Assembly: GCA_035275385.1 (NCBI GenBank) | Contig: DATEMW010000076.1 | Location: 1 to 40,273 of the forward strand | Length of the DNA stretch: 40,273 bases | Direction: 5' to 3' | Source of the DNA: Candidatus Methylomirabilota bacterium | Lineage (GTDB): Bacteria; Methylomirabilota; Methylomirabilia; Rokubacteriales; CSP1-6 | In this document: positions 2,518-21,976 of the stretch, piece by piece | How the letters are laid out: each line of letters starts with the position of its first letter | How positions within the stretch are numbered: the stretch's first letter is position 1 | Notes under the pieces: model-generated | Databases searched by the model: none | Told to the model about the DNA's origin: nothing | The model's input: the letters and a program-made list of their open reading frames with translations, nothing else | Translations under genes and position numbers: made by a program

Positions 2518-2564
2518 TATAAGGATTCTTGACTTGGCCTCCGGCGCGGCCCTACTTTCGTTTC

Positions 2565-4511: not shown

Positions 4512-4650
4512 CCGCGGCGAGCGCCACGAGCGCTCGCAAAACCTCGCGTCCAGCCCGCATGCTCTGCAGGTGTTGAGTAGTTCTCGCCAAAAAAAACGCG
4601 CGCGATCCGCGACGGTGCAACAACGCGTACGTGACTGCGTGCGAGCTCAT
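4471..4650 (-). CDS. Candidate small hydrophobic protein (59 aa) downstream of lexA
   Basis: A strong SD, AGAAGGAGG (reverse complement of 4655-4663), lies 5 nt before ATG 4650; a GTG alternative is at 4653. The C-terminal half VLRALVALAAVIAWGAVCLMLRG is a predicted TM helix. Against it: GC3 looks lower than neighbouring genes, it contains a T8 run, and it overlaps the 3' end of the convergent HD-GYP gene by 41 nt. Confidence 0.3.
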   Translation of the reverse strand: MSSHAVTYALLHRRGSRAFFLARTTQHLQSMRAGREVLRALVALAAVIAWGAVCLMLRG

Positions 4651-4695
4651 CACTGCCTCCTTCTACGACGTTCATCCCACGACGTTCATCGAGAA

Positions 4696-5340
4696 TCAAA
4701 ACCCTCTGAGGAGTCCGATGACCTTGCCGAGAATCGTGACCGCGCGCCGGGCCGGATCGATGACGATCGGCGCCATCGTCTGGTTCTCGGGCTTGAGCAC
4801 GACGCGCGAGCCATCGCGCAAGAACCTCTTCACGGTCGCCTCGGTCTCCCCGCCTGCCTCTGACTCGACCATCGCCACGACGATGTCGTTCGGCTGAGCC
4901 GAGCTCTGGCGCCTGACGAGCACGAGGTCGCCATCGCAGATGTGCGCCTCGATCATCGACTCGCCGCGCACGCGCAGCGCGAACACGTCCTCGCCGCGGC
5001 CGGGCAAGGACGCCGCGGCGATCGGCACGTCGCCCTCGCGGTTTTCCTGAGCCAGGAGCGGCGAGCCCGCGGCGATCCGGCCCAAGATCGGCACGGCGTG
5101 ATGCGCGCGCGACGCGCCGCCCACGTCGGGCAAACTGAGCGCCCGCGACGTGCGGCCCTCGCTCGGGCGCCGCTGCAGCTCGCCCTTGCGCTCCAGTGCG
5201 CGCAGATGATCGAACGCGGCCCGCGGCGTGATGCGGAACCGCCCGCCGATCTCGCGCACGGTCGGCGGCACCCCGTGCTTGGCCTGGAAGCTGCGCATGA
5301 AGCTCAGAACTTCGCGCTGTCGGCCCGTCAGCTCTCGCAT
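4696..5340 (-). CDS. lexA: LexA repressor (SOS regulator, S24 peptidase)
   Basis: The N-terminus is a winged HTH: MRELTGRQREVLSFMRSFQAKHGVPPTVREIG. The Ala-Gly cleavage site is in RIAAGSP, the catalytic Ser in VRGESM and the catalytic Lys in TVKRF. GGAGG lies 7 nt upstream of ATG 5340. The track ORF start at 5394 would place the promoter and palindrome inside the gene. Confidence 0.92.
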   Translation of the reverse strand: MRELTGRQREVLSFMRSFQAKHGVPPTVREIGGRFRITPRAAFDHLRALERKGELQRRPSEGRTSRALSLPDVGGASRAHHAVPILGRIAAGSPLLAQENREGDVPIAAASLPGRGEDVFALRVRGESMIEAHICDGDLVLVRRQSSAQPNDIVVAMVESEAGGETEATVKRFLRDGSRVVLKPENQTMAPIVIDPARRAVTILGKVIGLLRGF

Positions 5341-5361
5341 CCGTCGTCCTCCGTGCCGCGC

Positions 5362-5393
5362 AGTATCACTCAACTGGTGTTGACTAGTCAACA
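5362..5393 (-). promoter_or_regulatory. lexA promoter with overlapping palindromic operator (candidate SOS box)
   Basis: On the minus strand, TTGACT (5391-5386) is followed by an 18-nt spacer and GATACT (5367-5362). A perfect 16-bp palindrome TGTTGACTAGTCAACA (5378-5393) covers the -35. A further TCAAC-N4-GTTGA inverted repeat lies at 5370-5383. Confidence 0.5.
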
Positions 5394-5443
5394 AAAAGCG
5401 AGTGCCTGGTTTTCGGGACAGGAACGGGCTCAGAGAAGGCGGG

Positions 5444-5905
5444 CTACGCGGGCTCCCAGGGCTCGCAGACCGGGCAGGTCGTCAACCCCTGCTCGCGAGC
5501 CTCGGCGACGTGCTTGAAGTACGCGCGCTCGGCCTCGGGAATCCGCGCGACCCAGGCGCAGTCGCTCTTGTGGAACAGGCGCGAGGAGCGCTGAGCGCAA
5601 TAGGGCTCCCCCGGCTCGACTGCGACGGTGGGCGCGGAGTCGACCGCGGGGCTGGCGACGGGCGTCTCCGATGGCGCGGTCGCGATCGGCGGCTCGATGA
5701 TCGGCGTCGACGACGGGATGATCGGATCGGGATCGTTGATGTGGAGATTCGTCTCGACGGTCGATCGGAACTCGTCGCTGGCGCGACGGAACTCGCGGAG
5801 CGCGCGACCGATCATCCTGCCGAGCTCGGGGAGCTTTCCCGGCCCGAAGACCAGCAGGGCCAGCACCCCGATGACGAGCATCTCCTGAAATCCGATGTCG
5901 AACAT
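5444..5905 (-). CDS. TatA/TatB-family Sec-independent translocase component with C-terminal Cys4 Ada-like zinc module (153 aa)
   Basis: [42 protein letters not shown] is a canonical Tat TM helix, hinge and amphipathic helix. A Pro-rich linker follows. The tail is [48 protein letters not shown]. Confidence 0.8.

Positions 5906-7901: not shown

Positions 7902-7905
<4 letters not shown>
6730..7905 (-). CDS. GT4 glycosyltransferase of the 'glycogen synthase, Corynebacterium family' / GlgM (maltose-1-phosphate synthase)-like type
   Basis: LLTREYPPHIYGGAGVVV, HAHTWY and LHSMEPLRPWKADQLGSGYLLSSWIEKTAVEAADRVIAVS match, from memory, the conserved blocks of mycobacterial GlgM (Rv1212c). The GT-B motif EPFGLINLEAMACETPVVASAVGG is present. 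Confidence 0.85.
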
Positions 7906-9276
<1,371 letters not shown>

Positions 9277-9284
<8 letters not shown>

Positions 9285-10617
9285 TTTTCACCCGCTTGAT
9301 CGGCAGCCGGATCGTGAACGTCGCGCCGAGCGGGGCGCGGTTGTCCCAGGTGACGGTGCCCTCATGCTCCTCGGCGATCTGCCTGGTGATCGAAAGGCCG
9401 AGCCCGGTCCCCTGCGGCTTCGTCGTGAAGAACTGCTCGAAGAGCCGCGGCATGACCTCCGCGGGAATGCCGCCGCCGGTGTCGGAGACGGCGATCTCCA
9501 CGGCCTCGCCGTCGAAGCGGCTCCCGATCGTGAGCTCGCCGCCGCTCGACAGGGTCTCGAGCCCGTTCTTGACGAGGTTCAGCACCGCCTGGCGCAAAAG
9601 CCCGCGATCGATCTCCATCATCGGCACGTTGGGGTCGAGCTCGACCCGCAAGGTGAGCCCCTGGCGCGTCGCGACCGGCCGCACGAAATCCGCGAGCTCC
9701 TGCACGAGATGGTTGATCGACTCTTCGTCGAAGTGCGGCTTCGGGAATCGCGCGAACGCCAGATATTCCTCGGTCAGCGCGTCGAGCGTGGTGACCTGGT
9801 CGCGAATCGCCGCCACGAGGCCCGCCGCCTCCTTCATGTCGTCGCCGTCGCTGCGCTCGCGCACGATGTCCTCGAGCATCTCGGCGTTGAGCTCGATGGC
9901 GCTGATGGGATTGCGCACCTCGTGCGCGATCCGGAGCGAGAGGCGTCCCACCGTGGCCATCCGCTCGGCGACCACCAGCTCTTGCTGCGCGGTCTGCAGC
10001 CGGCTCAAGGTGCCCGTGAGCTCGACGTTCAGCCGCTCGACCTCGCCCCGGGCGCGCCGCTCGCGGTCCGCGACCAGCCCCAAGGTCACCGCGGGCAAGC
10101 CGGCCAGCGCCACGAGAATCAGGTGCGGCGTCCAGCCGACCCACGGGGGCACCAGCACCGTCGACCACGCGTAGAGCCCGCCCGCCACCACCGCCGCGCC
10201 GAGTCCGACCCAGGGCCCGAAGTAGTACGCGTTCACGGCGACCAGCGGAAAGAACAACAGATAGAAGACGCTGTCACCGGCGCCGGTGAGGCACAGCAGG
10301 ACGAACACCAGCGAGAGATCGATCGCGAGAGCCCCGATGAAGTAGGCGCGCGTGGCGCGCGGGTTGACCGTGACCAGCGCGAAGATGCCCACCTTGTAGG
10401 CCGCGAAACAAAAGACCAGCCAGTAGAGATCGATGTCGCGATAGCGGGGCCGCAGCGGGAAGAACCCGAGCGCGACGAGTCCGCCGACCATCACGACGGC
10501 CAGCAGCACCGCGAAAACGCGCTCGTCTCGCTCCAGCAGCCGAAAGCTGGCGTGCCACGGCTTGCGCTCGGCGGTGATGGCCATCTCCACGCCGACTATA
10601 GCATTGCGGCCAATCAC
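9277..10617 (-). CDS. Membrane-embedded sensor histidine kinase
   Basis: The N-terminus has about six hydrophobic helices and no obvious periplasmic domain. The H-box is RIAHEVRNPISAI. The HATPase N/G boxes are LVKNGLE, DTGGGI and GTGLGLSI. It overlaps the downstream regulator gene by 8 nt and dedA by 4 nt. Confidence 0.88.
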
Positions 10618-11249
10618 GGCCTCTCGCCGCGGCGGCGGATCGCGATCGTGACCCAGATCGCGACGATGACGAGCACGCCGAGCGTAATCCAGCGCTCGAT
10701 CCGGTGCACGTCGGCGAAGACCTGCTCGACCTGATCGGCGAAGAGGTACGCGAGGAAGAAGCCGAACGGCACGCTCACGAGCGCGGCGCCGGCATCGACG
10801 GCCAGGAATTTCCAGAAGGGCACCCGGGCGATCCCCGCAGTGAGAAAGGCCGCGGCCCGAAGGCCCATCACGTGGCGGGCCGTGAAGACGATCTTCACCC
10901 CGTTGTTGCGATAGGCGGCCTTGAGCCGCTCTTCGCGGGCCGGGCTCAGCACCCAGCGGACCGGCCGCCAGCCGAGAACCCGTTCACCCCAATGGTGCCC
11001 CACCCAATAGAGGGCGATGTCGCCCGAAAGCACGCCCACGAAGCAGACGGGCAGCGCGATCCACCACCGAAGGACGAGCTGGTGCGACAGGACCCCACCC
11101 GTAATAATCGGCAGCTCCTCGGGGATCGGAACGCCAAGCCCGGCGAGGAAGAGAATGAGAAGCAGCCCGACGTAACCGAGCTGCTCTATGAGTGAGGCGA
11201 CCAGATCGCACCTCGAGCCAGATTTCGGTTTCCGGAAGTTGCTGACCAC
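10614..11249 (-). CDS. DedA/SNARE-associated family membrane protein
   Basis: The lead-in GYVGLLLILFLAGLGVPIPEELPIITGGVL is typical of DedA. Multiple TM helices follow. Confidence 0.85.
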   Translation of the reverse strand: MVSNFRKPKSGSRCDLVASLIEQLGYVGLLLILFLAGLGVPIPEELPIITGGVLSHQLVLRWWIALPVCFVGVLSGDIALYWVGHHWGERVLGWRPVRWVLSPAREERLKAAYRNNGVKIVFTARHVMGLRAAAFLTAGIARVPFWKFLAVDAGAALVSVPFGFFLAYLFADQVEQVFADVHRIERWITLGVLVIVAIWVTIAIRRRGERP

Positions 11250-11293
11250 AGTGTATACTTCGATAGTCCTGTGCGGTCAGAAGGAGCCCTTCC

Positions 11294-11650
11294 ATGGCGG
11301 TCAAACTCTTCGTAGGCGGTTTATCCTTTTCCACCTCCAACGAGCGCCTGCGCGAAGCATTCGCGGCGGTCGGCAGCGTCGAATCCGCGAGTGTCGTGAC
11401 CGACCGGGACACCGGCCGTTCGCGGGGCTTCGGGTTCGTCGAGATGGCGACCCCCGAGGAAGCTGAGCAGGCCATTAGCCGCCTCAACGGCACGAACCTC
11501 GACGGCCGAACCATTCAGGTCGAGAAGGCGAAGGCCCCAGGGTCAGGCGGGGGAGGCGATCGGCGCGGCGGCGGGGGCGGCGGCCGCGGTGGGTTCGGCG
11601 GCGGTGGTGGCGGCGGCCGGGGCGGCGGTGCCCGCGGCGGCCGCTGGTAG
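11294..11650 (+). CDS. RRM (RNP-1/RNP-2) RNA-binding protein with Gly/Arg-rich tail
   Basis: RNP-2 is LFVGGL and RNP-1 is RGFGFVEM. The C-terminus is GGGGDRRGGGGGGRGGFGGGGGGGRGGGARGGRW. AAGGAG lies 7 nt upstream of the ATG. Confidence 0.9.
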   Translation: MAVKLFVGGLSFSTSNERLREAFAAVGSVESASVVTDRDTGRSRGFGFVEMATPEEAEQAISRLNGTNLDGRTIQVEKAKAPGSGGGGDRRGGGGGGRGGFGGGGGGGRGGGARGGRW

Positions 11651-11709
11651 CACCGCTCTCATCCACTAGCGTTTTATCGCTCGAATGTGCAGGGCGGTAG
11701 TCTGCCCGT

Positions 11710-12792
11710 ATGACGACCGTCCTGCACACCGAGTCCTCGGTCGGCCACGGCGGCCAGGAAATTCGTACGGTCGCCGAGGCGCGCTGGCTCCTCGCCCACG
11801 GCTGGGGAGCCCTGATCGCCTGCCAACCGGATAGCCCCCTTCTGGCCGAGGCCAGGGCCTCGGCGATCCCTGTCGAGGCGATCCCCATGCGGGGCGCGAC
11901 GGACCTGGGCGCGCTCCTCCGGCTTCGACGGCTCATCCGCGAGCGCGCCGTCAGCGTGGTCCACACCCATAGCTCGGTCGACAGCTGGCTCGGCGGCGTG
12001 GCCGCCAAATCGCTCGGCCGGCCGGTCGTCCGCACCCGCCACGTCTCGATCGCGATCGGCCGCCGGCGCGCCCTGGTCTATCGGCTCGCGGATCGGATCA
12101 TCACCAGCGGTGAGAGCGTACGCTCGATCGTGATCGCCGCCGGGATCGCGCCGGAGCGCGTCGTGTCGATCTCGGCCGGCGTCGACGGCGATCGGTTCCA
12201 TCCGGGCGTATCCGGCGTAGCCGTCCGCGGCGAGCTGGGGCTGGGCAAGGCGCCCGTGGTCGGGCTCGTGGCCAACGTGCGGGGCTCGAAGGGCCATAAC
12301 GTGTTCCTCGAAGCGGCGCGCGATGTGCTGGCGCGCGAGCCCCGCGCGCGCTTTCTCATCGTCGGCGACGGCGTGGGCTTCGACGAGGTCTCGCGCCGCG
12401 TGCGCGACATGGGGCTCGACGCCTCAGTACGCCTGACCGGATTTCGCCGGGACATTCCCGAGGTGATGGCCGCGCTCGACGTGCTGGTGCTGCCGTCGAT
12501 CAGGTCGGAGGCGATCCCGCAGGTGATTCCGCAGGCCCTGGCCGTCGGCACTCCGGTGGTCGCCTCGACGGTGGGCGGCAGCCCCGAGCTGATCCGCGAC
12601 GGCGAGAACGGGCGGCTGGTGCCCCCGGGCGACGCGAGCGCGCTCGCGGGCGCGATCCTGGCGCTGCTCGCCGATCCCGACCGCGCGCGCGCGATGGCGC
12701 TCGCGGGCCAGGCGCTGATACGCGAGCGCTACTCGATCGACGCCACGATGGCGCGGACCACGGCGGTCTACCGCGAGCTGCTCGAGCGCTAG
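11710..12792 (+). CDS. Glycosyltransferase family 4 (GT-B fold)
   Basis: A C-terminal E-x7-E-like block is present: LVLPSIRSEAIPQVIPQALAVGTPVVASTVGGSPELIRDGENGRLV. Confidence 0.88.
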   Translation: MTTVLHTESSVGHGGQEIRTVAEARWLLAHGWGALIACQPDSPLLAEARASAIPVEAIPMRGATDLGALLRLRRLIRERAVSVVHTHSSVDSWLGGVAAKSLGRPVVRTRHVSIAIGRRRALVYRLADRIITSGESVRSIVIAAGIAPERVVSISAGVDGDRFHPGVSGVAVRGELGLGKAPVVGLVANVRGSKGHNVFLEAARDVLAREPRARFLIVGDGVGFDEVSRRVRDMGLDASVRLTGFRRDIPEVMAALDVLVLPSIRSEAIPQVIPQALAVGTPVVASTVGGSPELIRDGENGRLVPPGDASALAGAILALLADPDRARAMALAGQALIRERYSIDATMARTTAVYRELLER

Positions 12793-12804: not shown

Positions 12805-12832
12805 TCTATATATAGTAATATTATGATATAGA
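12805..12832 (+). promoter_or_regulatory. AT-rich promoter/operator with inverted repeat upstream of the ArsR-family gene
   Basis: TCTATAT (12805-12811) pairs with ATATAGA (12826-12832) across a 14-nt spacer that contains the palindrome TAATATTA. A possible promoter is TTCTAC (12793-12798), a 17-nt spacer, then TAATAT (12816-12821). Confidence 0.5.
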
Positions 12833-12838
12833 GATTAT

Positions 12839-13198
12839 GTGAGCCCGACGCTCTCGATCGACCTCCAGTCGTTCAAGGCGGAGTTCTTCAAGGCGCTGGC
12901 CCACCCCGTCCGCATCCGGATCCTCGAGGTCCTACGGGCCGGCGAGCATAGCGTGCAGGAGCTGCAGGCCCGGCTCGACCTCGATCAGTCGACGGTCTCC
13001 CAGCAGCTGGCGGTACTTCGTACCAAGAACATCGTGACCGCCCGCAAGGAAGGCACGACCGTCCGGTACGAGATCCGCGATCCACTGGTCGGCGACCTTC
13101 TCGACGTGGCCCGTCGCATCTTCAACAATCAGCTGGCCGGCTCCCAGACGATGCTGCGAGCGCTCCGTCAGGAAACGCGCCGGCCGGCGAAGCGCTGA
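12839..13198 (+). CDS. ArsR/SmtB-family transcriptional regulator (GTG start)
   Basis: FKALAHPVRIRILEVLRAGEHSVQELQARLDLDQSTVSQQLAVLR is the canonical ArsR winged HTH. It is the first gene of the operon below. Confidence 0.9.
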   Translation: MSPTLSIDLQSFKAEFFKALAHPVRIRILEVLRAGEHSVQELQARLDLDQSTVSQQLAVLRTKNIVTARKEGTTVRYEIRDPLVGDLLDVARRIFNNQLAGSQTMLRALRQETRRPAKR

Positions 13199-13200
13199 CC

Positions 13201-13710
13201 GTGCTGCGCCAGCTCCGCACCGCGTTCCGTACGGGCATCGTCACCGAACCGGTGCGGGCCTCCGCCGAGCTCGAGCGGGTCGGCGAGCGGCTCGCGACCG
13301 AAATCTCGCGGCTCTTCAGCCGCGCGCTCGCGATCCGTCAGGTCGATGCCGGCTCGTGCAACGGCTGCGAGCTCGAGATCGGTGGCCTCACAGGCCCGCA
13401 CTACGACCTCGAGCGATTCGGCGTGCACTTCGTGGCCTCGCCGCGCCACGCCGATTGCCTGCTGGTGACCGGTCCGGTGACCCGCAACATGGCCGAAGCG
13501 CTACGGCGCACGTGGTTGGCGACGCCGGATCCGAAGTTCGTCGTGGCGGTCGGCGACTGCGGGCGCGACGGGGGAATCTTCCGCAGCTCCTACGCGGTCG
13601 TGGGCGGCGTCGGCGAAGTGGTCCCGGTCGACGCGGTCATCCCCGGATGCCCGCCCTCGCCCGCAGCGCTCCTGGCCGGCCTTCTCGAGGCGATAGGCCG
13701 CCGTCGATGA
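13201..13710 (+). CDS. NuoB/HycG-type small subunit (4Fe-4S) of a group-4-hydrogenase/complex-I-like module
   Basis: Four cluster cysteines are retained: GSCNGCELE (two), GDCGRDGG and IPGCPPSP. The start is GTG, 2 nt after the ArsR stop. Confidence 0.9.
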   Translation: MLRQLRTAFRTGIVTEPVRASAELERVGERLATEISRLFSRALAIRQVDAGSCNGCELEIGGLTGPHYDLERFGVHFVASPRHADCLLVTGPVTRNMAEALRRTWLATPDPKFVVAVGDCGRDGGIFRSSYAVVGGVGEVVPVDAVIPGCPPSPAALLAGLLEAIGRRR

Positions 13711-15617
13711 CCCGACTGGTCTACGGGCTCGTCACGCTCATGGGCGTGGTGGTCGGCGTCGCGGGCGCGTACGGCGCCGCGGGCGGCGCCGGCACCTTGC
13801 GAATAGGCTGGCTCGTGCCGCTCGGCGGTCTTGAGCTGACGCTCGATCCCCTCGCCGGGTTCTTCCTCGCGCTGATCGGCTTCGCGGCCGTGCCGGCGTC
13901 GATCTACGCCATCGGCTCCTCGGACGGCGACGGGCGGGGCCGCTTCGCATACGCCGCGTTCGTGGCGTCGATGTGCGTCGTCCCGCTCGCCGGGAACGTG
14001 ATGACCTTCGTGCTCGCCTGGGAGCTCATGTCGCTGGCGTCATACTTCCTGGTGCTCCGCGACCCCGACTCGCGAGAATCGGTACGCGCCGGCTGGATCT
14101 ACCTCGTCATGACCCACGCCGGGCTCGCCTGTCTGCTCGGAGGCATGCTGCTGCTCGGTGCCGACATCGGCAGCCTCAGGTTCGCAGATTGGCGGGCGGC
14201 GGCGCCGACGCTGACCCCCACGACCCGGAACGTGGCCTTCGTGCTGATGGCCCTCGGCTTCGCCGGCAAGGCCGGCGTGATACCGCTGCACATCTGGCTG
14301 CCGCTCGCGCATCCGGCGGCGCCGAGCCACGTCTCGGCGCTGATGTCCGGCGTCATGATCAAGCTGGGCGTCTACGGGCTCATGCGCGTGAGCCTCGACT
14401 GGCTTGGATCGGGTGCGCCGTGGTGGGGCGTCGCCCTCCTGATCGCCGGCGCTGCGTCCTCGGTGATCGGCGTGCTCTACGCGCTGGTCGAGCACGACCT
14501 CAAGCGCCTGCTCGCGTTCCACAGCATCGAGAACATAGGGATCATCCTGCTCGGCCTCGGCAGCGCTGTGTCGTATCGAGTCGCCGGCCTCGAGGCGCTC
14601 GCGCTCCTCGGGTTGATCGCGGCGCTCTATCACACGGTCAACCATGCCGCATTCAAGGCGCTACTGTTCCTGGGCGCGGGCGCCGTCGTCCACGCGACCG
14701 GCACGCGAAACATGGAGGCGATGGGCGGGCTCATCAAGCGGATGCCGTGGACCGCCGCCTGCTTCCTGATCGGCTCCGCGGCGATCGCGGCCTTGCCGCC
14801 TCTCAACGGCTTCGTGAGTGAATGGCTGACGTTCCTGGCCATGTTTCAGAACGCGAGCCTCGGCGCGGTCGGGCAGAGCCTGGTCTTCACGCTCGGCATC
14901 GCGAGCCTCGCGCTGACCGGTGGTCTCGCGATGGCGTGCTTCGTGAAAGCCTTTGGTATCACGTTCCTCGCTCTTCCCCGGAGCGACGCCGCTGCCCACG
15001 CCGACGAGGCGAGCCCGACCGTGCGCGTGGCGATGCTCGCGCTGGCCGCCGCCTGCATCGGCCTCGGCGTGGCTTCGACGCTGGTCGTTCCGGCGTTCGA
15101 GCACGTGGCGGCGTCGGTCCTGCGAACCGCGCCCCGAGCGACAGCGGGCCACTGGCTCACCCTGCGCGTGTCGGGCGATTTTGCCAGCCTGTCGACCGCG
15201 GCGATCGCCGTCGCCCTGGCCGCGGCGCTCCTCGGCTCGCTCGCGATACTGCGGCTCGTGGGCGCCTCGCACCGCACACGCAGCGACGAGACGTGGGGCT
15301 GCGGCCGGATATTACAGACCGCGCGAATGGAATACACGGCGACCGCATTCGCCAATCCCTTCAAGCGGGTCTTCGATTTCTTCTACCGGCCCACGACGCG
15401 CCTGGACATCGAGTCCCATCCCGAGTCGCGGTTCTTCGTCCAGCGCATCGAATACGAGAGCCCGACGCGCTCCATCTTCGAAGATTGGCTCTATCGGCCC
15501 TCGCTCGACCTTCTCGTCAGGGGCGCGCGCGTCGTCGGCACGCTGCAGTCGGGCAGCACGAATCAGTATCTGGCATACATCCTGGCCGCGCTCCTGCTCC
15601 TGTTGGTCCTCGCGTGA
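13707..15617 (+). CDS. HyfB/HycC/NuoL-like antiporter-type membrane subunit (636 aa)
   Basis: A proton-antiporter (NuoL/M/N, Mrp) fold is indicated by WELMSLASYFLV, GKAGVIPLHIWLPLAHPAAPSHVSALMSGVMIKLGVYG and AFHSIENIG. An ATGA overlap with the upstream stop sets the start at 13707, rather than the upstream extension to 13356. Confidence 0.88.
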   Translation: MTRLVYGLVTLMGVVVGVAGAYGAAGGAGTLRIGWLVPLGGLELTLDPLAGFFLALIGFAAVPASIYAIGSSDGDGRGRFAYAAFVASMCVVPLAGNVMTFVLAWELMSLASYFLVLRDPDSRESVRAGWIYLVMTHAGLACLLGGMLLLGADIGSLRFADWRAAAPTLTPTTRNVAFVLMALGFAGKAGVIPLHIWLPLAHPAAPSHVSALMSGVMIKLGVYGLMRVSLDWLGSGAPWWGVALLIAGAASSVIGVLYALVEHDLKRLLAFHSIENIGIILLGLGSAVSYRVAGLEALALLGLIAALYHTVNHAAFKALLFLGAGAVVHATGTRNMEAMGGLIKRMPWTAACFLIGSAAIAALPPLNGFVSEWLTFLAMFQNASLGAVGQSLVFTLGIASLALTGGLAMACFVKAFGITFLALPRSDAAAHADEASPTVRVAMLALAAACIGLGVASTLVVPAFEHVAASVLRTAPRATAGHWLTLRVSGDFASLSTAAIAVALAAALLGSLAILRLVGASHRTRSDETWGCGRILQTARMEYTATAFANPFKRVFDFFYRPTTRLDIESHPESRFFVQRIEYESPTRSIFEDWLYRPSLDLLVRGARVVGTLQSGSTNQYLAYILAALLLLLVLA

Positions 15618-16558
15618 TGGCCGACGTCGCCGCCGCGCTCCTGCAACTCCTGATCGTCGCCGCCGGCGCCCCGTTGATCGTCGGCGCGCTCCGCACCCTG
15701 AAGGCACGGCTGGTCGGCCGTCGTGGCCCGAGCCCATGGCAGCCCTACGCCGAGCTGCGCAAGCTGATCTCCAAGGAAGCGGTCGTCTCCACGACGACCT
15801 CATGGGTGTTTCGTGCCACTCCGTACGTCCTGGTCGCGACCTTGCTGGTTGCGGCGATGATCGTCCCGATCGCAGTCGCACGGCCGCCGCTGGCGTTCGC
15901 CGGCAACATCATCTTGCTCGTCTACCTCTTCATGCTCGGCACGTTCTTCCTGGCGCTGGCGGGCCTGGACGCGGGCAGCGCCTTCGGCGGCATGGGCTCG
16001 AGCCGCGAGGTAGCCGTCGCCGCGCTCGCCGAGCCGACGATCATCGTTGCGGTGTTTGCACTCGCACTGCGTGCCGGCACGATCGATCTCGGCCGCATCG
16101 CGGAGCGGTTCGGCGCTGAGCCCTGGCTGGCGGCCAATCCCGCGCACCTGCTGGCATTCGCCGCCTTCTTCATCGTCATGCTGGCCGAGACGGGGCGGCT
16201 TCCCGTCGACAACCCGGCGACTCACCTGGAGCTGACGATGATCCACGAGGCGATGGTGCTCGAGTACTCGGGTCGATACCTGGCGCTGATCGAATGGGCA
16301 GCGGCGATGAAGCTTTTCCTATTCATGGCGCTCCTGGCGAACCTCTTCTTTCCCTGGGGTTTGAGCGCTCCGACCGGCCTCGTTCCGATCGCCGTGAGCC
16401 TTCTCAGCTTGACCCTGAAGCTCGGAGTGCTGACGGTGGCCGTTGCGGTGCTCGAGGTCGCGGTGGCGAAGCTCAGACTATTCCGCGTTCCCGAGCTGCT
16501 CGCCGGCTCGTTCGCGCTGGCCCTGTTGTCGCTTATGGCGGTATTCGTCGTCCGATGA
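15617..16558 (+). CDS. HycD/HyfC/NuoH-like membrane subunit
   Basis: VGRRGPSPWQPYAELRKLISKE is a NuoH/HycD hallmark. AETGRLPVDNPATHLELTMIHEAMVLEYSG is conserved. The start overlaps the upstream stop (TGATG). Confidence 0.88.
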   Translation: MADVAAALLQLLIVAAGAPLIVGALRTLKARLVGRRGPSPWQPYAELRKLISKEAVVSTTTSWVFRATPYVLVATLLVAAMIVPIAVARPPLAFAGNIILLVYLFMLGTFFLALAGLDAGSAFGGMGSSREVAVAALAEPTIIVAVFALALRAGTIDLGRIAERFGAEPWLAANPAHLLAFAAFFIVMLAETGRLPVDNPATHLELTMIHEAMVLEYSGRYLALIEWAAAMKLFLFMALLANLFFPWGLSAPTGLVPIAVSLLSLTLKLGVLTVAVAVLEVAVAKLRLFRVPELLAGSFALALLSLMAVFVVR

Positions 16559-17196
16559 CGACCGCATCGAACCTCCTGACATTCCTCTGCCTGGCGATCA
16601 CCTTGCTCATCGTGTGGCGACGGAGCTGGCCGGCGCGTTTGAGGCTCTTCGCCGCCCAATCGCTGCTGCTCGCAATCCTGGCGGGCACGATCGGCGTTCT
16701 CGCGCAGCGACGCGGGCTGTTCCTGGTAGCCGCGGTCGTCGTGGTCGTCAAGGTCTGGGCGATCCCCCGCGTGCTCGCACGCATCGGCTCCGGCGCACCG
16801 GTCCGACCGATCGCACCCGGTCGATCCTCGGGAATCGCGCTCCTGGTCGCCGGAGCTCTCGTCGTCGCGGCATACGTCGTCATGCTTCCGGTCACCGCGG
16901 CAGCGGAGCTGCCGACCGGCGGCGCCATCCCGCTCGCGTTCGCGATGGCCCTGATCGGCCTCGCCCTGTGCGTCACGGGCCGCGACGCGCTGAGCCACAT
17001 CCTGGGCTTCCTCGTCTTCGAGAACGGGATCTTCGGCCTCGCGATCCTGGCCACCTATGGGCTGCCGGGTATCGTCGAGGCCGGCGTCTTCCTCGACGTG
17101 CTGGTCATCGTCCTCATCATGGAAGCCGTGGTCGTGCAGGTGCGCCGCGAGCACGCCTCGATCGATGTCGATCGCCTCCGAGAGCTCCGCGGATGA
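16555..17196 (+). CDS. HyfE/HycP-like (NuoK-related) membrane subunit
   Basis: It is a 213-aa polytopic protein in the position and of the size of hydrogenase-4 component E / Rv0085. The start overlaps the upstream stop (ATGA). Confidence 0.8.
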   Translation: MTTASNLLTFLCLAITLLIVWRRSWPARLRLFAAQSLLLAILAGTIGVLAQRRGLFLVAAVVVVVKVWAIPRVLARIGSGAPVRPIAPGRSSGIALLVAGALVVAAYVVMLPVTAAAELPTGGAIPLAFAMALIGLALCVTGRDALSHILGFLVFENGIFGLAILATYGLPGIVEAGVFLDVLVIVLIMEAVVVQVRREHASIDVDRLRELRG

Positions 17197-18626
17197 TGTT
17201 GCTGGCCGTCCTGGCAATTCCGCTGGTCGGCGCCGCTCTGCTCTGGCGAGCAACCAATCGCCTGGCGACGACGCTGCACGCGGTGACGGCGGCCTCGACG
17301 CTCGCGGCCGGGCTCGCGGTGGCCGTCATGGTCAACGCGGGCGAGACACTGGTGGCGTTCGACGGGCTGCTCCGTGCCGACGCGCTGTCGGCGTGGATGA
17401 TCGCCCTCATCGGCATCGTCGGCGGGCTCGCCGCCTCGGAGGCGCCACGCTACGTCGTGCCGGGCGAGCCGCGTCGCTTCTATCCGCTCTTCCACTTGTT
17501 CGTGTTCACGATGCTGCTCGCGGTCTCTACCGACGACGTCGGCCTCATGTGGGTCGCCGTCGAAGGCACGACGCTCGCGTCGGTCTTCCTGGTCAACTTC
17601 GAGCGCACGCGCGCCTCGCTCGAGGCGTCGTACAAGTACCTCTTGATCTGCTCGGTAGGTATCGCGATCGCATTCCTCGGCACCGTGCTCGTGTACTTCG
17701 CGGGCATCCAGCAGTTCGGCGACGAGACGCACGCGCTCCGGTACACGACCTTGCTGCGGCTGGCCCCCGGGCTCTCGCCGCGCGTCATCGAGCTCGCCTT
17801 CGTCTTCCTCGTCGTCGGCTACGGGACGAAGGCCGGACTGGCGCCGATGCACACGTGGCTGCCGGACGCTCACAGCGAGGCGCCGGCACCGGTGAGCGCG
17901 CTCATGTCGGGCGTCCTGCTGAGCGTCGGGGTGTACGCGATCGCGCGCTTCAAGCCCGCCGTCGACGCGGCAGCTGGGCCCACATTCGCGCGCGGGATCA
18001 TGCTGACGCTCGGCCTGCTGTCGATCGCGGTGGCGTCCGCGTTTCTGTGGACGTCGCCCAACTACAAGCGCGCGCTCGCGTACTCGAGCGTCGAGCACAT
18101 CGGGCTGGTGTGCCTCGGGCTCGGATTCGGCGGGCCGGTCGCTACCGCCGGCGCCCTCCTGCACGTTGCGAACCACGCACTCGCCAAGTCGGCCGGCTTT
18201 CTGATGTCGGGGCGCATCCGCGCCGCATACGGCTCGGCCGAGATCGGCTCGGTGCGCGGCGTCATGAAGCACATGCCTCGGACGGGAGCGGCGTTCCTGA
18301 CCTCGATCCTGGCACTCGTGGGCCTGCCTCCCTTCGGGCTCTTCGTCAGCGAGGTGATGATCTTTGCCGCGGGCTTCAAGCAAGGGTTCCCGCTCGTGGC
18401 GGGCATCGCGCTCCTGCTGCTCGTGATCGCCTTCGCGGGGCTGCTCCGCGGCGTTCACCACATCCTCTACGGGGCTCCCGCCGGCGAGCCCGTGGCCGAG
18501 GTGGCCGGCTGGCCCTCGGTGGTGCCGGTCGCCGCGGCGCTCGGCGTGCTGCTCCTCACCGGGCTGGCGTGGCCGCCGGGATTCGGCGAAGCCCTCGACC
18601 GCCTTGCCGCGATCGTGAGTCCCTGA
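17193..18626 (+). CDS. HyfF/HycQ/NuoN-like antiporter-type membrane subunit (477 aa)
   Basis: GLMWVAVEGTTLASVFLV, GYGTKAGLAPMHTWLPDAHSEAPAPVSALMSGVLL and AYSSVEHIG are present. The start overlaps the upstream stop (ATGA). Confidence 0.88.
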   Translation: MMLLAVLAIPLVGAALLWRATNRLATTLHAVTAASTLAAGLAVAVMVNAGETLVAFDGLLRADALSAWMIALIGIVGGLAASEAPRYVVPGEPRRFYPLFHLFVFTMLLAVSTDDVGLMWVAVEGTTLASVFLVNFERTRASLEASYKYLLICSVGIAIAFLGTVLVYFAGIQQFGDETHALRYTTLLRLAPGLSPRVIELAFVFLVVGYGTKAGLAPMHTWLPDAHSEAPAPVSALMSGVLLSVGVYAIARFKPAVDAAAGPTFARGIMLTLGLLSIAVASAFLWTSPNYKRALAYSSVEHIGLVCLGLGFGGPVATAGALLHVANHALAKSAGFLMSGRIRAAYGSAEIGSVRGVMKHMPRTGAAFLTSILALVGLPPFGLFVSEVMIFAAGFKQGFPLVAGIALLLLVIAFAGLLRGVHHILYGAPAGEPVAEVAGWPSVVPVAAALGVLLLTGLAWPPGFGEALDRLAAIVSP

Positions 18627-20213
18627 ATGCCGGTGACGATCTCGCTCGACACCCTGCGCAAGGCCGTCGTCGCCGCCGGGGCCACGGGCGTCGGCGCGCC
18701 GCACGACGGCTCGATCCAGTGCCGGCTACCGGCCTGGGAAGTGCCCGCGCTCGCTGATCGTCTGGCGGCAGTCGGCGCGCGCTGCCAGTTCATGGCCGCC
18801 GCCGACACGCGCACGGCAGCCAGCGGCGACTTCACCCTCGCTTACGTTTTCGCCCCACCGCAGCTCGCGCCGTCGGTCAGCGTGCTGGCGGCCGTTCCGG
18901 CCGGGACGGCCCGCTTCGCCTCGCTCGCGACGCGTTCGTTCGCGGCGAGCCGCTTCGAGCGGGAGATCCACGACCTGTTCGGTCTGGTTCCAGAGGGCCA
19001 TCCGGACTTGCGCCGGCTCGCGCTGCACCAGTACTGGCCAGAGGGGTATCACCCGCTCCGCCGCGACGTCGCGCCCCGGACGGATTTCGTCGACACCGGC
19101 GAGCCGTTTCCGTTCCGGCGGGTCGACGGCGAGGGCATCTTCGAGATCACCGTGGGGCCGGTTCACGCCGGAATCATCGAGCCCGGCCATTTTCGCTTCA
19201 GCGTCGAAGGCGAGACGATCGTGAATCTCGAGACACGCCTGGGCTTCGTTCACAAGGGGACGGAACGGCTGCTGGCAGAGTCAGCCCTCGAGCGTGGACC
19301 AGAGCTCGCCGAGCGGGTCTCGGGCGACACGACCGTCGGCCACGTCATGGCCTTCTGTCAGGCGCTCGAGGCCCTCGCCGGCTGCGTAGTGCCGCCCCGC
19401 GCGCGCCTGCTTCGGCTCGTCCTGCTCGAGCTCGAGCGGATCTACAACCACGTCGGTGACGTGGGCATGATCGTGAACGACACCGGATTCGCCTTCGGGC
19501 ACGCGCACTGCTTCCGAATTCGCGAAGAGCTGCTGCGGCTCAACGAACGGCTCACCGGCCACCGTCTGATGCGCGGAGCGGTGGTGCCGGGCGGAGTGGC
19601 GGGCCCGATCGCTGCCGTGCCGCTGCTCGAGGCTGCGACGGCCGCCGGCAATCTGGTCGCGGAGTTCGCCGCGGTCACGCGGGTCTGCCTGGACAACACG
19701 CTGGTCCTCGAACGGCTCCAGGGGACCGGTCGTCTGACCGCGCGGACTGCGGAGGAGATGCAAGTGGTCGGGCTCGTCGGACGTGCGAGCGGGATCGATG
19801 CCGATGTCCGCCGCGACGCGCCCTTCGCCGCCTACGACGGCGCCCACGTGCGCGTGGCGGTGTACGGAGCGGGCGACGTGTGGGCGCGGACGATGGTGCG
19901 CCTGGACGAAGCGCGCGAGGCGGCGCGCCTCATCGGCGAGGCCGCCCGCCGCGACACGAGCGGACCCGTGCGAGCCTCGCTGCCGCCCTTCAAGGCCGGC
20001 GCGCACGCCTTCGGGCTCGTCGAAGCGTGGCGCGGGCCCGTGTGGCACTGGGTGCTCGCTGACGGCCCCAAGTCGCTCAGTCGCGTGAAGATCGTCGACC
20101 CGTCCTTTCGTAACTGGCCGGCGCTCGAATACGCGGTACTCAACAACATCGTTCCGGATTTTCCCCTCTGTAACAAGTCCTTCAACCTCTCGTACTCGGG
20201 GAACGATCTCTAG
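18627..20213 (+). CDS. HycE/HyfG-like large subunit (NuoC-NuoD fusion) lacking the paired [NiFe] cysteine motifs
   Basis: The NuoC-like part contains RFEREIHDLFGLVPEGHPDLRRL. The NuoD / NiFe-large-subunit part contains ITVGPVHAGIIEPGHFRF and LGFVHKGTERL. The position of the RxCGxCxxxH motif reads ERVSGDTTVGH (19311-19343). The position of the C-terminal DPCxxCxxR motif reads NLSYSGNDL (20184-20210), followed directly by the stop. Confidence 0.9.
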   Translation: MPVTISLDTLRKAVVAAGATGVGAPHDGSIQCRLPAWEVPALADRLAAVGARCQFMAAADTRTAASGDFTLAYVFAPPQLAPSVSVLAAVPAGTARFASLATRSFAASRFEREIHDLFGLVPEGHPDLRRLALHQYWPEGYHPLRRDVAPRTDFVDTGEPFPFRRVDGEGIFEITVGPVHAGIIEPGHFRFSVEGETIVNLETRLGFVHKGTERLLAESALERGPELAERVSGDTTVGHVMAFCQALEALAGCVVPPRARLLRLVLLELERIYNHVGDVGMIVNDTGFAFGHAHCFRIREELLRLNERLTGHRLMRGAVVPGGVAGPIAAVPLLEAATAAGNLVAEFAAVTRVCLDNTLVLERLQGTGRLTARTAEEMQVVGLVGRASGIDADVRRDAPFAAYDGAHVRVAVYGAGDVWARTMVRLDEAREAARLIGEAARRDTSGPVRASLPPFKAGAHAFGLVEAWRGPVWHWVLADGPKSLSRVKIVDPSFRNWPALEYAVLNNIVPDFPLCNKSFNLSYSGNDL

Positions 20214-20812
20214 ACGACCCTGCCGCCGCCGACCGACCGCGCCGAGAAGCGGCGCATGTCGGCCTTCTCGGAGCGGCCTTCCGCTTCGATCACGAAGCCC
20301 GCCGCCTCGACCGCCCGCTCGGTGTCCCGGTTGGGGTGACAGCCGCCGCTGACCCACGTCCACACCGGCTCCACGCGATCTTGAAATATCGCCTTCCACC
20401 GTCGCCGCGAGCGTACGTGCTCCAGCATCCGTAGCCGGCCATCGCGCCGCAGCACGCGCTTGACCTCGGCGAGGCCCCGCGCGGGCTCCCGCACGGTGCA
20501 GAAGACCAGGCTCGAGACCACGGTGTCGAAGGCGTCGTCGCGGAAGGGCAGCGCCTCGGCGCTTCCCTGCACCAGCGGCACGGTCGGCGCGCGGCGCCGG
20601 GCACGCGCGAGCGAGTCCCAGGCCGGATCGAGACCGATCGGACGAACGTCACGGGAATAGAGCGCGAGCCCGCGTCCGGTGCCGCAGCCGACGTCGAGCG
20701 TTCGGCCGCGCGCGCCGGCGGCGAGCCAGCGCCGCCAGGCGTCGAGGCCCGTACGCTCGAGCACCGCGCAGAGCCCGTCGTAGAGCCACGGGATCTGCTC
20801 GACCCCGCGCAC
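20210..20812 (-). CDS. Class I SAM-dependent methyltransferase
   Basis: Motif I is LDVGCGTGRGL. LVFCTV and GRLRMLEHV follow. The GTG start directly abuts the FIST stop (TGAGTG). Confidence 0.85.
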   Translation of the reverse strand: MRGVEQIPWLYDGLCAVLERTGLDAWRRWLAAGARGRTLDVGCGTGRGLALYSRDVRPIGLDPAWDSLARARRRAPTVPLVQGSAEALPFRDDAFDTVVSSLVFCTVREPARGLAEVKRVLRRDGRLRMLEHVRSRRRWKAIFQDRVEPVWTWVSGGCHPNRDTERAVEAAGFVIEAEGRSEKADMRRFSARSVGGGRVV

Positions 20813-21976
20813 TCAGGCCTCGGGAAAGACGACGAGCGCGCCCGTGTAGTTGTGGAAGAAGTTGCGGCGGCCGATCGGCGCGAACTCGCCGTTGCCGAAG
20901 AACCCGACCAGCGGGAATTCGCCGAGCTTCTCGCGGATCAAGGTCACGTCGTGATCGGCGACGCCGAAGAGCCCGCGGCCGCGTCCGGCGCAATCGAAGT
21001 AGCAGCCGAACGCCGGCCGCCGCCCGGCGAGCCGCCCCGCGAGCTCGTCGAGCATCTCGATCAGGTCGTCGCGCGAGGCCTGCGCATCGCGGATCTGGAA
21101 CTGCAGGGTCTGTCCAATCCGCACGCGCTCGGCGACGGCCAGGGCGCCGCTCGCCTGATCAGCGCCGACCAGATTGCGCACGAGGAAGTCGCCGCGCTCG
21201 AGGGGCGACTTGGCCGGATCCATCGCGAGCCCGGCGAAGACGCCAGCGTGTCGAATACGCGACTCGGTGTCGGGGTTCGCGCGGATCGCCTGGGTGAGCA
21301 CCTCCAGCGCCGGCCGGCTCGCGATCCGCTGGATCACGTTGGCGTCGGCGTGCGTGATCACGTACGGCTCGCCGATCGGCGTGCAGCCCTGCGTGACGCC
21401 GATCAGCGGCGAGAGCCCGGAGAGCGCGACGCCGACCAGCGCGCCTTCGGTCGCGTCGGTGTTATAGAGCTCGAACATCGGCGAGCCCGCCGCGACCGCG
21501 CCGAGCACGGGCACGAAGCCGAGCGCTTCACCGAGCTCGTTCAGGAGCGCCGGCGGGTTGCAGCCGATGGCGTCGGGCAGCACGAGCACGCAGCCGCCTT
21601 CCGCGACGGTCGGCCCGATCTGCTGGCCGAGCTCAGCGCCGAGCTGGGGCCGCTCGCCCTGGCGCTCGAACGAAAACGGCGTGGCGACGAGACGCTCGCA
21701 GCGGACCGCGAGCACCGCGACGGCCAGATCCTCTTCCACTTCGCGGCGCTCGGTCAGGATCCCGGTGCCGCTGCAGCCGATGACGACCGGCGCTCCGGTG
21801 ACGCGCCGGACCGCGTGCAGCGCCTCGTGAGCGCGCGCCCGGGCGTCGCCAGTGGTGAAGACGAGGGCGAGGTCGGCGCGATCGGCGCCGCTCCGCTCGA
21901 GGGCCTGTAGCGATGCCTCGAGCGCGGCGTTGTCGGCGGTGCCGCCCACGGCGAGACCGGTTCCCGCGGCGATCAT
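20813..21976 (-). CDS. Stand-alone FIST (FIST_N + FIST_C) sensory-domain protein
   Basis: It has a FIST-like layout: LALVFTTGD...VIGCSGTGIL in the N-terminal half and FPLVGFFGNGEFAP...HNYTGALVVF at the C-terminus. Confidence 0.82.
   Translation of the reverse strand: MIAAGTGLAVGGTADNAALEASLQALERSGADRADLALVFTTGDARARAHEALHAVRRVTGAPVVIGCSGTGILTERREVEEDLAVAVLAVRCERLVATPFSFERQGERPQLGAELGQQIGPTVAEGGCVLVLPDAIGCNPPALLNELGEALGFVPVLGAVAAGSPMFELYNTDATEGALVGVALSGLSPLIGVTQGCTPIGEPYVITHADANVIQRIASRPALEVLTQAIRANPDTESRIRHAGVFAGLAMDPAKSPLERGDFLVRNLVGADQASGALAVAERVRIGQTLQFQIRDAQASRDDLIEMLDELAGRLAGRRPAFGCYFDCAGRGRGLFGVADHDVTLIREKLGEFPLVGFFGNGEFAPIGRRNFFHNYTGALVVFPEA

Follow-up and report, generated by a model that had tools for sequence, protein, structure and literature searches.

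Does a seven-gene block that resembles a hydrogenase-4 operon, headed by an ArsR-type regulator and ordered like the Rv0081-Rv0087 locus of Mycobacterium tuberculosis, encode a hydrogenase, a form of complex I, or something else? The question is raised by seven forward-strand open reading frames (ORFs) at positions 12839-20213 of contig DATEMW010000076.1 (assembly GCA_035275385.1), a stretch of 40,273 nt that was analysed whole and is here called the window; residue numbers are those of the window proteins unless stated otherwise. The reading that we consider probable, judging from sequence comparison, is that the block is an operon for an Ehr ('energy-converting hydrogenase related') complex, that is, a redox-coupled ion-translocating module without a [NiFe] site and with a single Fe-S cluster, under the control of an autorepressor.

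The term 'Ech-hydrogenase-related' was coined for GSU0739-45 of Geobacter sulfurreducens (Coppi 2005), and in 2013 Marreiros et al. broadened it into a class under the name 'energy-converting hydrogenase related'. Its members are described as related to the group 4 (4f) hydrogenases, devoid of CxxC motifs, equipped with antiporter-like subunits and of unknown function (PMC10284858, PMC6349859, PMC7894505), and the M. tuberculosis Rv0081-Rv0087 locus was assigned to it in print in 2019 (PMC6728331). By its sequence, the complex of the window belongs to this class, having NuoB-, NuoD-, NuoH- and NuoL/M/N-like subunits that are related to group 4, nearer to it than to complex I, and devoid of the [NiFe] cysteines (Cys-less in what follows). 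It is a new member, in Rokubacteria, of an already named class; it adds no new kind of system, and its value is comparative.

The large subunit and its former [NiFe] site

Among solved structures, the large subunit is closest to HycE of the Escherichia coli formate hydrogenlyase (FHL; 7z0s_E, E=1e-63; 1e-37 for E. coli NuoCD, 5e-23 for the MBS chain 6u8y_L). In the alignment with HycE, each of the four [NiFe] cysteines is replaced (C241S, C244T, C531S and C534G, which are S232, T235, S522 and G525 of the window), so that the protein is not a hydrogenase. It ends in ...NLSYSGNDL, three residues past the last ligand position and with no processing peptide, and it scores under the cut-off of the Pfam model NiFeSe_Hases. 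The same four cysteines are missing in 120/120 of the closest Rokubacteria homologues and in 120/120 of the best mycobacterial ones. The initial annotation, which had named this subunit HycE-like, was right about the homology but overlooked the loss of the four cysteines.

A genuine H2-evolving [NiFe] hydrogenase of the Hyf/FHL-2 type, with its partners and maturation genes encoded beyond the window, would agree with database names such as 'Ni,Fe-hydrogenase III large subunit' and with the top NCBIfam models of the three accessory membrane proteins, which are hydrogenase-4 subunits B, E and F. These three matches, however, are all under the curated cut-offs, as are the other hydrogenase NCBIfam matches of the structural subunits; only the small subunit passes a cut-off, that of a generic NuoB subfamily model. 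There is also no HyfH/HycF, and the subunits were not found to fall in a genuine FHL or Ech clade with intact partners nearby. The four missing cysteines and the absent C-terminal extension for the endopeptidase rule this candidate out, and we assign it practically no probability.

The site that lost its metal is nevertheless not free to vary. A search of 1.84 billion representative proteins with the large subunit gives 7872 matches at E<=1e-3 and 1062 at E<=1e-30, and the best full-length representatives, about 119, include 85 Cys-less ones, each standing for a separate 50%-identity cluster, and 20 with all four cysteines, whose motifs are ERxCGxC and F[EN]LCY[AS]C. Within the 85, the replacement residues of the window are kept at S232 in 68 (Ala in 14), G233 in 79, D234 in 75, S522 in 78, Y523 in 76 and G525 in 79, and D527 is present in every one; the position of D234 is Val, Ala or Ile in hydrogenases. 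The mycobacterial large subunits carry ER[IV]SGD[TS] and ...NLSYAGNDL in 120/120 of the best homologues, M. kansasii and M. marinum proteins included. The residues that deliver protons in FHL, namely HycE H188, E193, H284, R395, E437 and R478 (PMC9474812), correspond to H180, E185, H275, R386, E428 and R469, retained in 79, 82, 78, 83, 82 and 82 of the 85, respectively. The former active site is thus under strong constraint, with conserved replacement residues of its own.

All seven genes show dN/dS values of 0.09-0.28 when compared with four Rokubacteria loci, the same range as the flanking glycosyltransferase gene. Taken together with the conserved cluster ligands, proton path and replacement residues, these values point to a functional complex rather than a relic, and we argue that it is not decaying and that it would serve a live redox-coupled function. 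A decaying, non-functional remnant of a group 4 hydrogenase is what the loss of four metal ligands and of the ferredoxin subunit might suggest, and one Geobacter paper does call Ehr non-functional (PMC13194489). Such a remnant is hard to square with seven intact, translationally coupled genes under that level of constraint, with replacement residues conserved across phyla, and with relatives that are expressed and regulated and that amount to more than 597 related stretches in species-representative genomes of many bacterial and archaeal phyla, as detected with a profile of 38 Cys-less large subunits. We hold the remnant to be highly improbable; the data all but exclude both this reading and that of a true hydrogenase.

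An AlphaFold2 model of the large subunit (pLDDT 79.5, pTM 0.86) finds 7z0s_E as its top Foldseek match (TM 0.82), then NuoCD (about 0.75). The model confirms the fold and says nothing on the chemistry of the pocket; the fold search of the PDB copy returned no Ehr-type structure.

The cluster, the membrane arm and the regulator

The best PDB match of the small subunit is HycG (7z0s_G, E=2e-41), with all four cluster cysteines aligned. The [4Fe-4S] ligands C53, C56, C120 and C150 follow the hydrogenase-type CxxC arrangement and are retained in 91/95 related loci, all but two of the remaining alignments ending early, while the non-ligand C86 varies among related loci. Unlike its relatives in loci with the Hyf gene order, described below, this subunit has no N-terminal ferredoxin-like domain.

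The membrane subunits repeat the picture. The HyfB-like subunit, which reaches 651.5 bits against a cut-off of 667 with the NCBIfam model for hydrogenase 4 subunit B, is closest to HycC (7z0s_C, E=1e-70) and has the antiporter-type residues E106, K188, K219, H313 and K317; the HyfF-like one (NCBIfam hydrogenase 4 subunit F, E=2e-122, under the cut-off) is closest to MbhH (6cfw_H, E=6e-37) and MbsH and has E124, K213, H328 and K332. The anchor matches HycD (7z0s_D, E=2e-44), and of the E-channel residues listed in the FHL structure paper (PMC9474812), HycD Y102, E130, E138, E189 and E206 are present as Y103, E131, E139, E191 and E211, R108 being replaced by T109. The HyfE-like subunit matches the NCBIfam hydrogenase 4 membrane subunit (HyfE) over its full length, under the cut-off (E=2e-21), and Pfam Oxidored_q2 at residues 127-212 (E=2e-4). 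The PDB comparison covered the five other structural subunits, and their best solved relatives are all FHL or MBH chains. The initial annotation had taken the subunits for homologues of hydrogenase-4, FHL and complex I, and the Pfam, NCBIfam and PDB matches concur.

A membrane arm this complete could also have outlived its chemistry. The complex would then be an Mrp-like cation/proton antiporter or a proton leak, its NuoB/NuoD-like cap serving as a structural plug or as a sensor of redox or Fe-S state that gates transport. Such a device would be in line with the two Mrp/NuoL-type subunits, the HyfE/NuoK-like one and the intact E-channel, and with the loss of the catalytic metal and of the entire electron-input relay; Mrp chains are also among the closest solved structures to the antiporter-like subunits. 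What makes us regard it as unlikely is that the four cluster ligands are kept while a neighbouring cysteine varies, that the near-invariance of the proton-donor and 'canopy' network over 85 relatives is hard to explain for a plug, and that true Mrp systems do not need NuoB, NuoD and NuoH homologues.

The genes themselves (Table 1) form a tight block, in a window of about 70% G+C. All ORFs have the coordinates first given for them, and the junctions, re-read in the DNA, are TGA-CC-GTG at 13196-13203, ATGA at 13707, TGATG at 15615-15619, ATGA at 16555 and at 17193, and TGAATG at 18624-18629, that is, the stop/start overlaps and near-zero gaps that had been described. The gene-for-gene arrangement recurs in 26/32 related loci of the Rokubacteria type and in 51 loci from mycobacteria and other actinobacteria, which argues against a chance run of ORFs. 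A consensus scan found no promoter-like forward-strand site inside the block and two terminator-like sites, no more than in shuffled sequence, and nothing useful within or ahead of the operon; an Rfam scan of the entire window gave no matches. Pfam searches of all remaining genes of the window found no hyp, hycI, formate dehydrogenase or ferredoxin-type gene, and CxxCxxCxxxC occurs in none of its real ORFs, which speaks against a hidden ferredoxin gene or domain; the absence of hyp, HycI-type protease, formate dehydrogenase and HycB/HycF-like genes from the window had been noted correctly.

Table 1. Genes of the operon and the putative operator ahead of it, in window coordinates
Feature	Position	Strand	Basis and details
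Putative operator, 30-nt imperfect palindrome TCTATATATAGTAATATTATGATATAGAGA	12805-12834		Repeat search: 17-nt overlapping arms, 82% complementary
ArsR regulator	12839-13198	+	Pfam ArsR/HTH_5/HTH_20; 119 aa, GTG start
Small subunit (EhrS; NuoB/HycG-like; Rv0082 equivalent)	13201-13710	+	Pfam Oxidored_q6 E=4e-31; 169 aa
HyfB/HycC/NuoL-like antiporter-like membrane subunit (Rv0083 equivalent)	13707-15617	+	Pfam Proton_antipo_M E=3e-56; 636 aa
HycD/NuoH-like membrane anchor (Rv0084 hycD equivalent)	15617-16558	+	Pfam NADHdh E=3e-42; 313 aa
HyfE-like small membrane subunit, NuoK-like C-terminal half (Rv0085 hycP equivalent)	16555-17196	+	Weak Pfam Oxidored_q2; 213 aa
HyfF/NuoM/N-like second antiporter-like membrane subunit (Rv0086 hycQ equivalent)	17193-18626	+	Pfam Proton_antipo_M E=2e-50; 477 aa
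Large subunit (EhrL; NuoC-NuoD fusion; HycE/HyfG-like; Rv0087 hycE equivalent)	18627-20213	+	Pfam Complex1_30kDa + Complex1_49kDa; 528 aa

The first gene encodes a regulator of the NCBIfam ArsR/SmtB subfamily (94.6 bits), whose best PDB match is Rv0081 of M. tuberculosis itself (6jmi, E=3.9e-20 over the full length; next ArsR 5e-14), at 46% identity, in keeping with the first description of the operon as headed by an ArsR gene of the Rv0081 kind. It is a winged helix-turn-helix protein without cysteines and without the alpha3/alpha5 metal site, no His pair being read in its alpha5 region; Rv0081 likewise lacks cysteines and metal sites, and was reported not to bind metals (bioRxiv 10.1101/465575). 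Three of the four DNA contacts proposed for Rv0081 are kept (S49, S52 and Q53, as S51, S54 and Q55), while S48 is replaced by Q50. A homologue search with the ArsR protein returned close Rokubacteria relatives only and gave no information on occurrence farther afield.

The palindrome ahead of this gene sits in a stretch of 71% A+T that ends 4 nt before the regulator GTG, and is regarded here as a putative operator overlapping the promoter. An operator role is predicted because Rv0081 binds an inverted repeat before its own operon and represses that operon through it (bioRxiv 10.1101/465575), and autorepression through the upstream palindrome is proposed for the window regulator too. At least two ATAT units lie within 55 nt upstream of the regulator gene in 30/32 related loci, against 9/5000 random 55-mers from the same loci, and the mean A+T of the upstream segments is 0.61 against 0.30 in the random 55-mers; a stricter operator regular expression fits 11/32 loci only, and the ATAT count was used instead. 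Many related loci have TTGAC-TATATAnnnAATATTnnnATAT ahead of the regulator gene, which looks like a -35 element followed by an operator. The sequence type differs between the window (ATAT-N-AATATT-N-ATAT) and the mycobacteria (TGATAAnTTCTTCAATTG), with an AT-rich repeat before the gene in both.

The association between regulator and cluster extends beyond the closest relatives. An Rv0081-like ArsR gene adjoins 26/32 close and 11/22 distant loci of the same gene order (both sets picked via the large subunit), 4/28 Cys-less loci of the Hyf order (Acidobacteria) and one all-Cys locus. L196 (Chloroflexota) and L183 (Ectobacillus funiculus) are relatives that have all four [NiFe] cysteines and an adjoining Rv0081-like ArsR, 48-51% identical to the window regulator, so that regulator and cluster may have been associated before the metal site was lost. 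The placement of the regulator varies, being convergent in L062 and divergent in two Acidimicrobiaceae loci (L110 and L111) among those listed, and L089, L147 and L177 carry further ArsR paralogues downstream of the cluster.

Relatives, gene orders and neighbouring genes

With the Rv0081 sequence, at least 72 loci were fetched from species-representative genomes. In 51 of the 72 loci listed, which come from Mycobacterium, Mycolicibacterium, Mycolicibacillus, Gordonia and actinobacterial metagenome-assembled genomes (MAGs), the six structural proteins of the window are encoded downstream with unchanged order and orientation, at identities, in gene order, of 50-64% for the small subunit, then 40-46%, about 50%, about 36%, about 43% and about 45% (35-64% overall). 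The M. tuberculosis order is rv0081, rv0082, rv0083, hycD, hycP, hycQ, hycE (PMC6901956 Table 1), and this operon is induced together with rv0081 (PMC6901956). The claim of the initial annotation that the block is collinear with Rv0081-Rv0087 is thus matched both by some 50 Mycobacterium-type loci among those listed and by the published order, and the M. tuberculosis genes are not arranged otherwise. M. tuberculosis itself was not among the loci listed from the Rv0081 scan, nor was it named among the best 120 mycobacterial proteins, and a degenerate 63-nt Rv0081 pattern gave no matches; the comparison with it draws on the Rv0081 sequence of PDB 6jmi, on M. kansasii, M. marinum, M. gastri and M. 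persicum as close relatives, and on published work. In M. interjectum (L083), an insertion of some 3.9 kb (about 13742-17648) parts the HyfE-like gene from the HyfF-like one, and the match to the HyfB-like protein is truncated; a mobile element may have disrupted the operon in this species.

The nearest homologues of the large subunit, 70-89% identical, come from soil and groundwater metagenomes, and the named ones are Candidatus Rokubacteria/Methylomirabilota, which bears out the earlier surmise that the host is not an actinobacterium. The wider set of related stretches includes Nitrospira, ammonia-oxidising archaea, Acidobacteria, Actinobacteria and Proteobacteria, and two gene orders recur in it. 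In the first, the small subunit leads ([ArsR]-small-HyfB-HycD-HyfE-HyfF-large), a ferredoxin-type gene is never included, and the carriers are Rokubacteria, Chloroflexi, Actinobacteria and some unclassified MAGs. The second, the Hyf order (HyfB-HycD-HyfE-HyfF-large-small), is found in Nitrospira, Acidobacteria, Verrucomicrobia, Omnitrophota, Proteobacteria, Thaumarchaeota and Firmicutes. All five all-Cys relatives sampled have the Hyf order, and four of the five show ferredoxin motifs between the large and small subunit cores, which in L167, read in detail, form an N-terminal extension of the small subunit. Among the 28 Cys-less Hyf-order loci, five keep the ferredoxin cysteines, 11 leave no room for an extension, and others have the extension without cysteines. 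A comparison of the small-subunit extension in the Acidobacteria L141, L143 and L164 with L167 and L145 (genes around 11400-12400) shows several Cys-less Acidobacteria that keep the extension and have lost its cysteines. On these alignments, the series looks like a stepwise loss, first of the [NiFe] site, then of the relay clusters and then of the relay domain, with the window as the end state.

In a crude neighbour-joining tree without bootstrap, the Cys-less sequences form one large assemblage beside the all-Cys cluster, and the window stands beside Acidobacteriota/Latescibacterota, apart from the mycobacterial clade. The number of antiporter-like genes varies, with two HyfB-like or two HyfF-like copies in some loci (among L129, L145, L146, L135, L136, L186 and L192), and two contigs of Nitrospirota each have a tandem pair of complete Ehr clusters. 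The public names of Cys-less large subunits are inconsistent and misleading, ranging over 'Ni,Fe-hydrogenase III large subunit', 'formate hydrogenase HycE', 'Hydrogenase-4 component G', 'NADH-quinone oxidoreductase subunit C' and 'hydrogenase large subunit', and a survey that took these proteins as a sign of H2 metabolism would be mistaken.

The surroundings of the relatives bear on a further explanation, according to which the operon would encode only the membrane or adaptor half of a larger enzyme. Genes elsewhere in the genome would supply a soluble input module that docks stably onto it, such as a formate dehydrogenase together with NuoE/F-like subunits or some other Fe-S oxidoreductase, and the functional enzyme, perhaps an oxidoreductase linked to formate or NAD(P)H, would not be a self-contained module. 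The historical 'formate hydrogenlyase' reading of the M. tuberculosis locus leans this way, and a complex of formate dehydrogenase and Ehr has been proposed for Margulisbacteria and Saganbacteria from nearby fdhA-nuoEF genes (PMC6349859); the Geobacter Ehr subunits are most abundant on formate (PMC7894505), and a single cluster makes a poor stand-alone input. However, the window has no formate dehydrogenase, NuoE/F or ferredoxin-type gene, and the flanks of orthologous clusters in five lineages (Latescibacterota L038, Acidobacteriota L036, Acidimicrobiaceae L110, M. gastri L100 and, from a second Rokubacteria clade, L033) share no partner gene: those seen there, all unrelated, encode a peptidase M24, MBL, radical SAM, an RRM protein, adenylate cyclase-TPR, an ABC ATPase, a SerB-like protein, CoxI, a permease and Pyr_redox_2. 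Moreover, the platform on which FdhF docks in FHL is HycF/HycB (PMC9474812), and this platform is missing in every same-order locus. The adaptor-half explanation is in our view an improbable one. What does follow from the single Fe-S cluster and the lack of an input module is that the electron donor must be encoded elsewhere. The 'minimal, self-contained ion-translocating redox unit under a dedicated repressor' of the initial annotation is self-contained only as far as the gene neighbourhood shows.

The flanks of the operon in the window are occupied by a GT4 glycosyltransferase gene upstream (11710-12792) and by genes for a Methyltransf_11/UbiE-like methyltransferase and a FIST-domain protein downstream (20210-21976). 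The synteny of these three genes with the operon is limited to the closest Rokubacteria loci, so that they probably adjoin the system without belonging to it. At 20210-20213, the TAG that ends the forward-strand large-subunit gene and the stop codon of the convergent methyltransferase gene (20210-20812, reverse strand) share the palindrome CTAG, and no terminator-like site lies between these two genes. Just upstream of the glycosyltransferase gene, the reverse strand at 7902-11276 encodes an NtrC-type sigma-54 response regulator, a histidine kinase and a VTT/DedA membrane protein, with no link to the operon seen; the first of them, at 7902-9287, is the sigma-54 activator that had been reported nearby. 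Farther upstream (44-5481, reverse strand), a KaiC-like ATPase gene stands beside one for an ATP-dependent DNA ligase, with a LexA repressor gene nearby (4696-5481), a group that may be a DNA-damage repair cluster.

A possible mechanism and the place of the complex among known systems

How might such an Ehr complex work? An ArsR dimer bound to the palindrome would repress its own operon until a non-metal signal releases it. The six proteins would then assemble as an FHL-type membrane arm with a minimal two-protein peripheral arm, whose single [4Fe-4S] cluster would be reduced directly by a dissociable low-potential carrier, most plausibly ferredoxin, at the surface that NuoI/HycF covers in relatives. 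The electron would pass to a substrate in a remodelled polar pocket (S232, D234, T235, S522, N520, E185 and H180) where large subunit, small subunit and anchor meet, and proton uptake in this pocket would be coupled through the E-channel to the movement of H+ or Na+ in the two antiporter-like subunits. The whole process might also run backwards, driven by the membrane potential. Menaquinone is the most economical guess for the acceptor, even though the canonical quinone ligands of complex I are absent, and by our estimate the reaction from ferredoxin to menaquinone would yield enough energy for two to three pumping channels.

More specifically, but only as a tentative suggestion that we would not call likely, the conserved pocket (Ser-Gly-Asp-Ser/Thr plus Asn-Leu-Ser-Tyr-x-Gly), set in a hydrogenase-type proton network, might be a new catalytic site fed by one [4Fe-4S] cluster without a NuoI-type relay, with the ArsR protein sensing its substrate or product. 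If so, the pocket would be a fourth chemistry of the complex-I superfamily, beside the reduction of protons, quinone and polysulfide, and the metal-independent ArsR, found in Rokubacteria, Actinobacteria, Chloroflexi, Acidobacteria and a few true hydrogenase relatives, and with both gene orders, could give a handle on the function of the M. tuberculosis 'Hyc' locus.

Several points weigh against the Ehr module as we picture it. The quinone ligands of E. coli NuoCD, Y273 and H224, are matched by G233 and I184 of the window in the alignment, and the small subunit has CxxC and not the tandem CC of cluster N2, so that the idea of a quinone comes without its usual hallmarks. The canopy Asp, otherwise strictly conserved, is Asn520 here, and the AlphaFold2 model is unconfident precisely at the beta1-beta2 loop and at the C-terminal segment of the pocket. 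The regulatory link, that is, operator function, repression and a single transcript, is predicted. A one-cluster peripheral arm that takes electrons directly is without precedent among the solved relatives, every one of which has a three-cluster relay via a NuoI/HycF-type subunit (PMC8165549), and some organisms with Ehr are reported to be without quinone biosynthesis (PMC6349859). Finally, neither a structure of an Ehr complex or of Rv0082-Rv0087 nor biochemical work on them turned up in the literature, and all mechanistic steps are for this reason drawn from homologues.

The comparison is of use in several respects. It places the M. tuberculosis-type seven-gene cassette, regulator included, outside Actinobacteria, in a distant phylum, and it shows an Fe-S cluster and proton and ion paths that were kept while the electron-input relay was lost in steps, in two recurrent gene orders. 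It yields concrete residues, a minimal six-subunit target and a candidate regulator-operator pair. Ehr is widespread, the hypoxia-associated operon of M. tuberculosis included, and databases still label its subunits as those of hydrogenases, formate hydrogenlyase or complex I; 'hydrogenase' annotations of the Ehr type in Rokubacteria should not be counted as H2 metabolism in soil ecology.

Among known systems, the Mrp antiporters consist of MrpA-G subunits without NuoB, NuoD or NuoH homologues. In the window, MrpA/D-like domains are present, but NuoB-, NuoCD- and NuoH-like subunits are integral to the operon (MrpB/E/F/G were not searched for specifically). With complex I/NDH-1, the window has in common the loss of all four [NiFe] cysteines, as in NuoD, a canopy Asn-His as in NDUFS2 (N185/H186), and the overall L-shaped layout, with its cluster, pocket, E-channel and antiporter-like subunits. 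Contrary to complex I, it is without NuoI and NuoE/F/G, has two antiporter-like subunits and one HyfE-like subunit where complex I has three antiporter-like ones with separate NuoA/J/K, and shows a weaker similarity to it than to FHL (1e-37 against 1e-63; TM about 0.75 against 0.82). With the canonical Tyr, His and tandem cysteines absent, a complex-I-type quinone site was rejected, quinone being retained as a weak guess.

FHL-1/hydrogenase-4 of E. coli provides the closest solved structure (7z0s) for the small, HyfB-like, anchor and large subunits, for the last of them also by fold. Both share the set of Hyf-type B, C, E, F and G homologues, the NuoC-NuoD fusion, the CxxC-type proximal cluster and the conserved beta1-beta2 Glu/His, canopy Arg and E-channel. 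The window differs in having no [NiFe] ligands, no HycB/HycF/HyfA/HyfH, no C-terminal processing peptide and no FdhF, HycI or Hyp genes nearby, in the change of the canopy Asp to Asn, and in the small-subunit gene at the front of the operon. Of the features of group 4 [NiFe] hydrogenases, it has the small subunit with the proximal cluster, and it lacks the [NiFe] cysteines of the motifs L1 (RxCGxCxxxH) and L2 (DPCxxCxx[HR]) and the HycF/HyfH relay subunit, with no maturation genes in the 40-kb window. The MBS/Mbx complexes of Pyrococcus furiosus are likewise hydrogenase-derived, [NiFe]-free and ion-translocating with a different electron acceptor, and are the only case understood by experiment in which the former hydrogenase site has taken on a new chemistry. 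MBS keeps two of the four [NiFe] cysteines and has a three-Cys proximal cluster with an open catalytic Fe, a two-cluster MbsN and 13 subunits (PMC8165549), whereas the window has none of the four cysteines, a four-Cys cluster, no MbsN-like subunit, six subunits and a much lower similarity to it (6u8y_L, E=5e-23). An MBS-like sulfur reductase is excluded by the four-Cys cluster and the lack of any residual [NiFe] cysteine.

The Ehr class is where the window finds its counterparts, with a NuoB-like small subunit, a Cys-less NuoD-like large subunit, a NuoH-like anchor, and NuoL-like antiporter and HyfE-like subunits, all of them present here. Many Ehr loci (Nitrospira, Acidobacteria, Thaumarchaeota, Proteobacteria) follow the Hyf order, whereas the window is small-subunit-first, without a ferredoxin-like domain and headed by ArsR. 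The rv0079, rv0080 and rv0088 neighbours of the M. tuberculosis locus and its control by DosR/MprA have no counterpart in the window, the subunit identities are 35-64%, the putative operator sequence differs and the window falls outside the mycobacterial clade of the neighbour-joining tree. What the window and Rv0081-Rv0087 do share is the same seven genes in the same order; the mycobacterial large subunits have the same Cys-less motifs and C-terminus, and an AT-rich repeat stands before the regulator gene in the mycobacterial loci as well.

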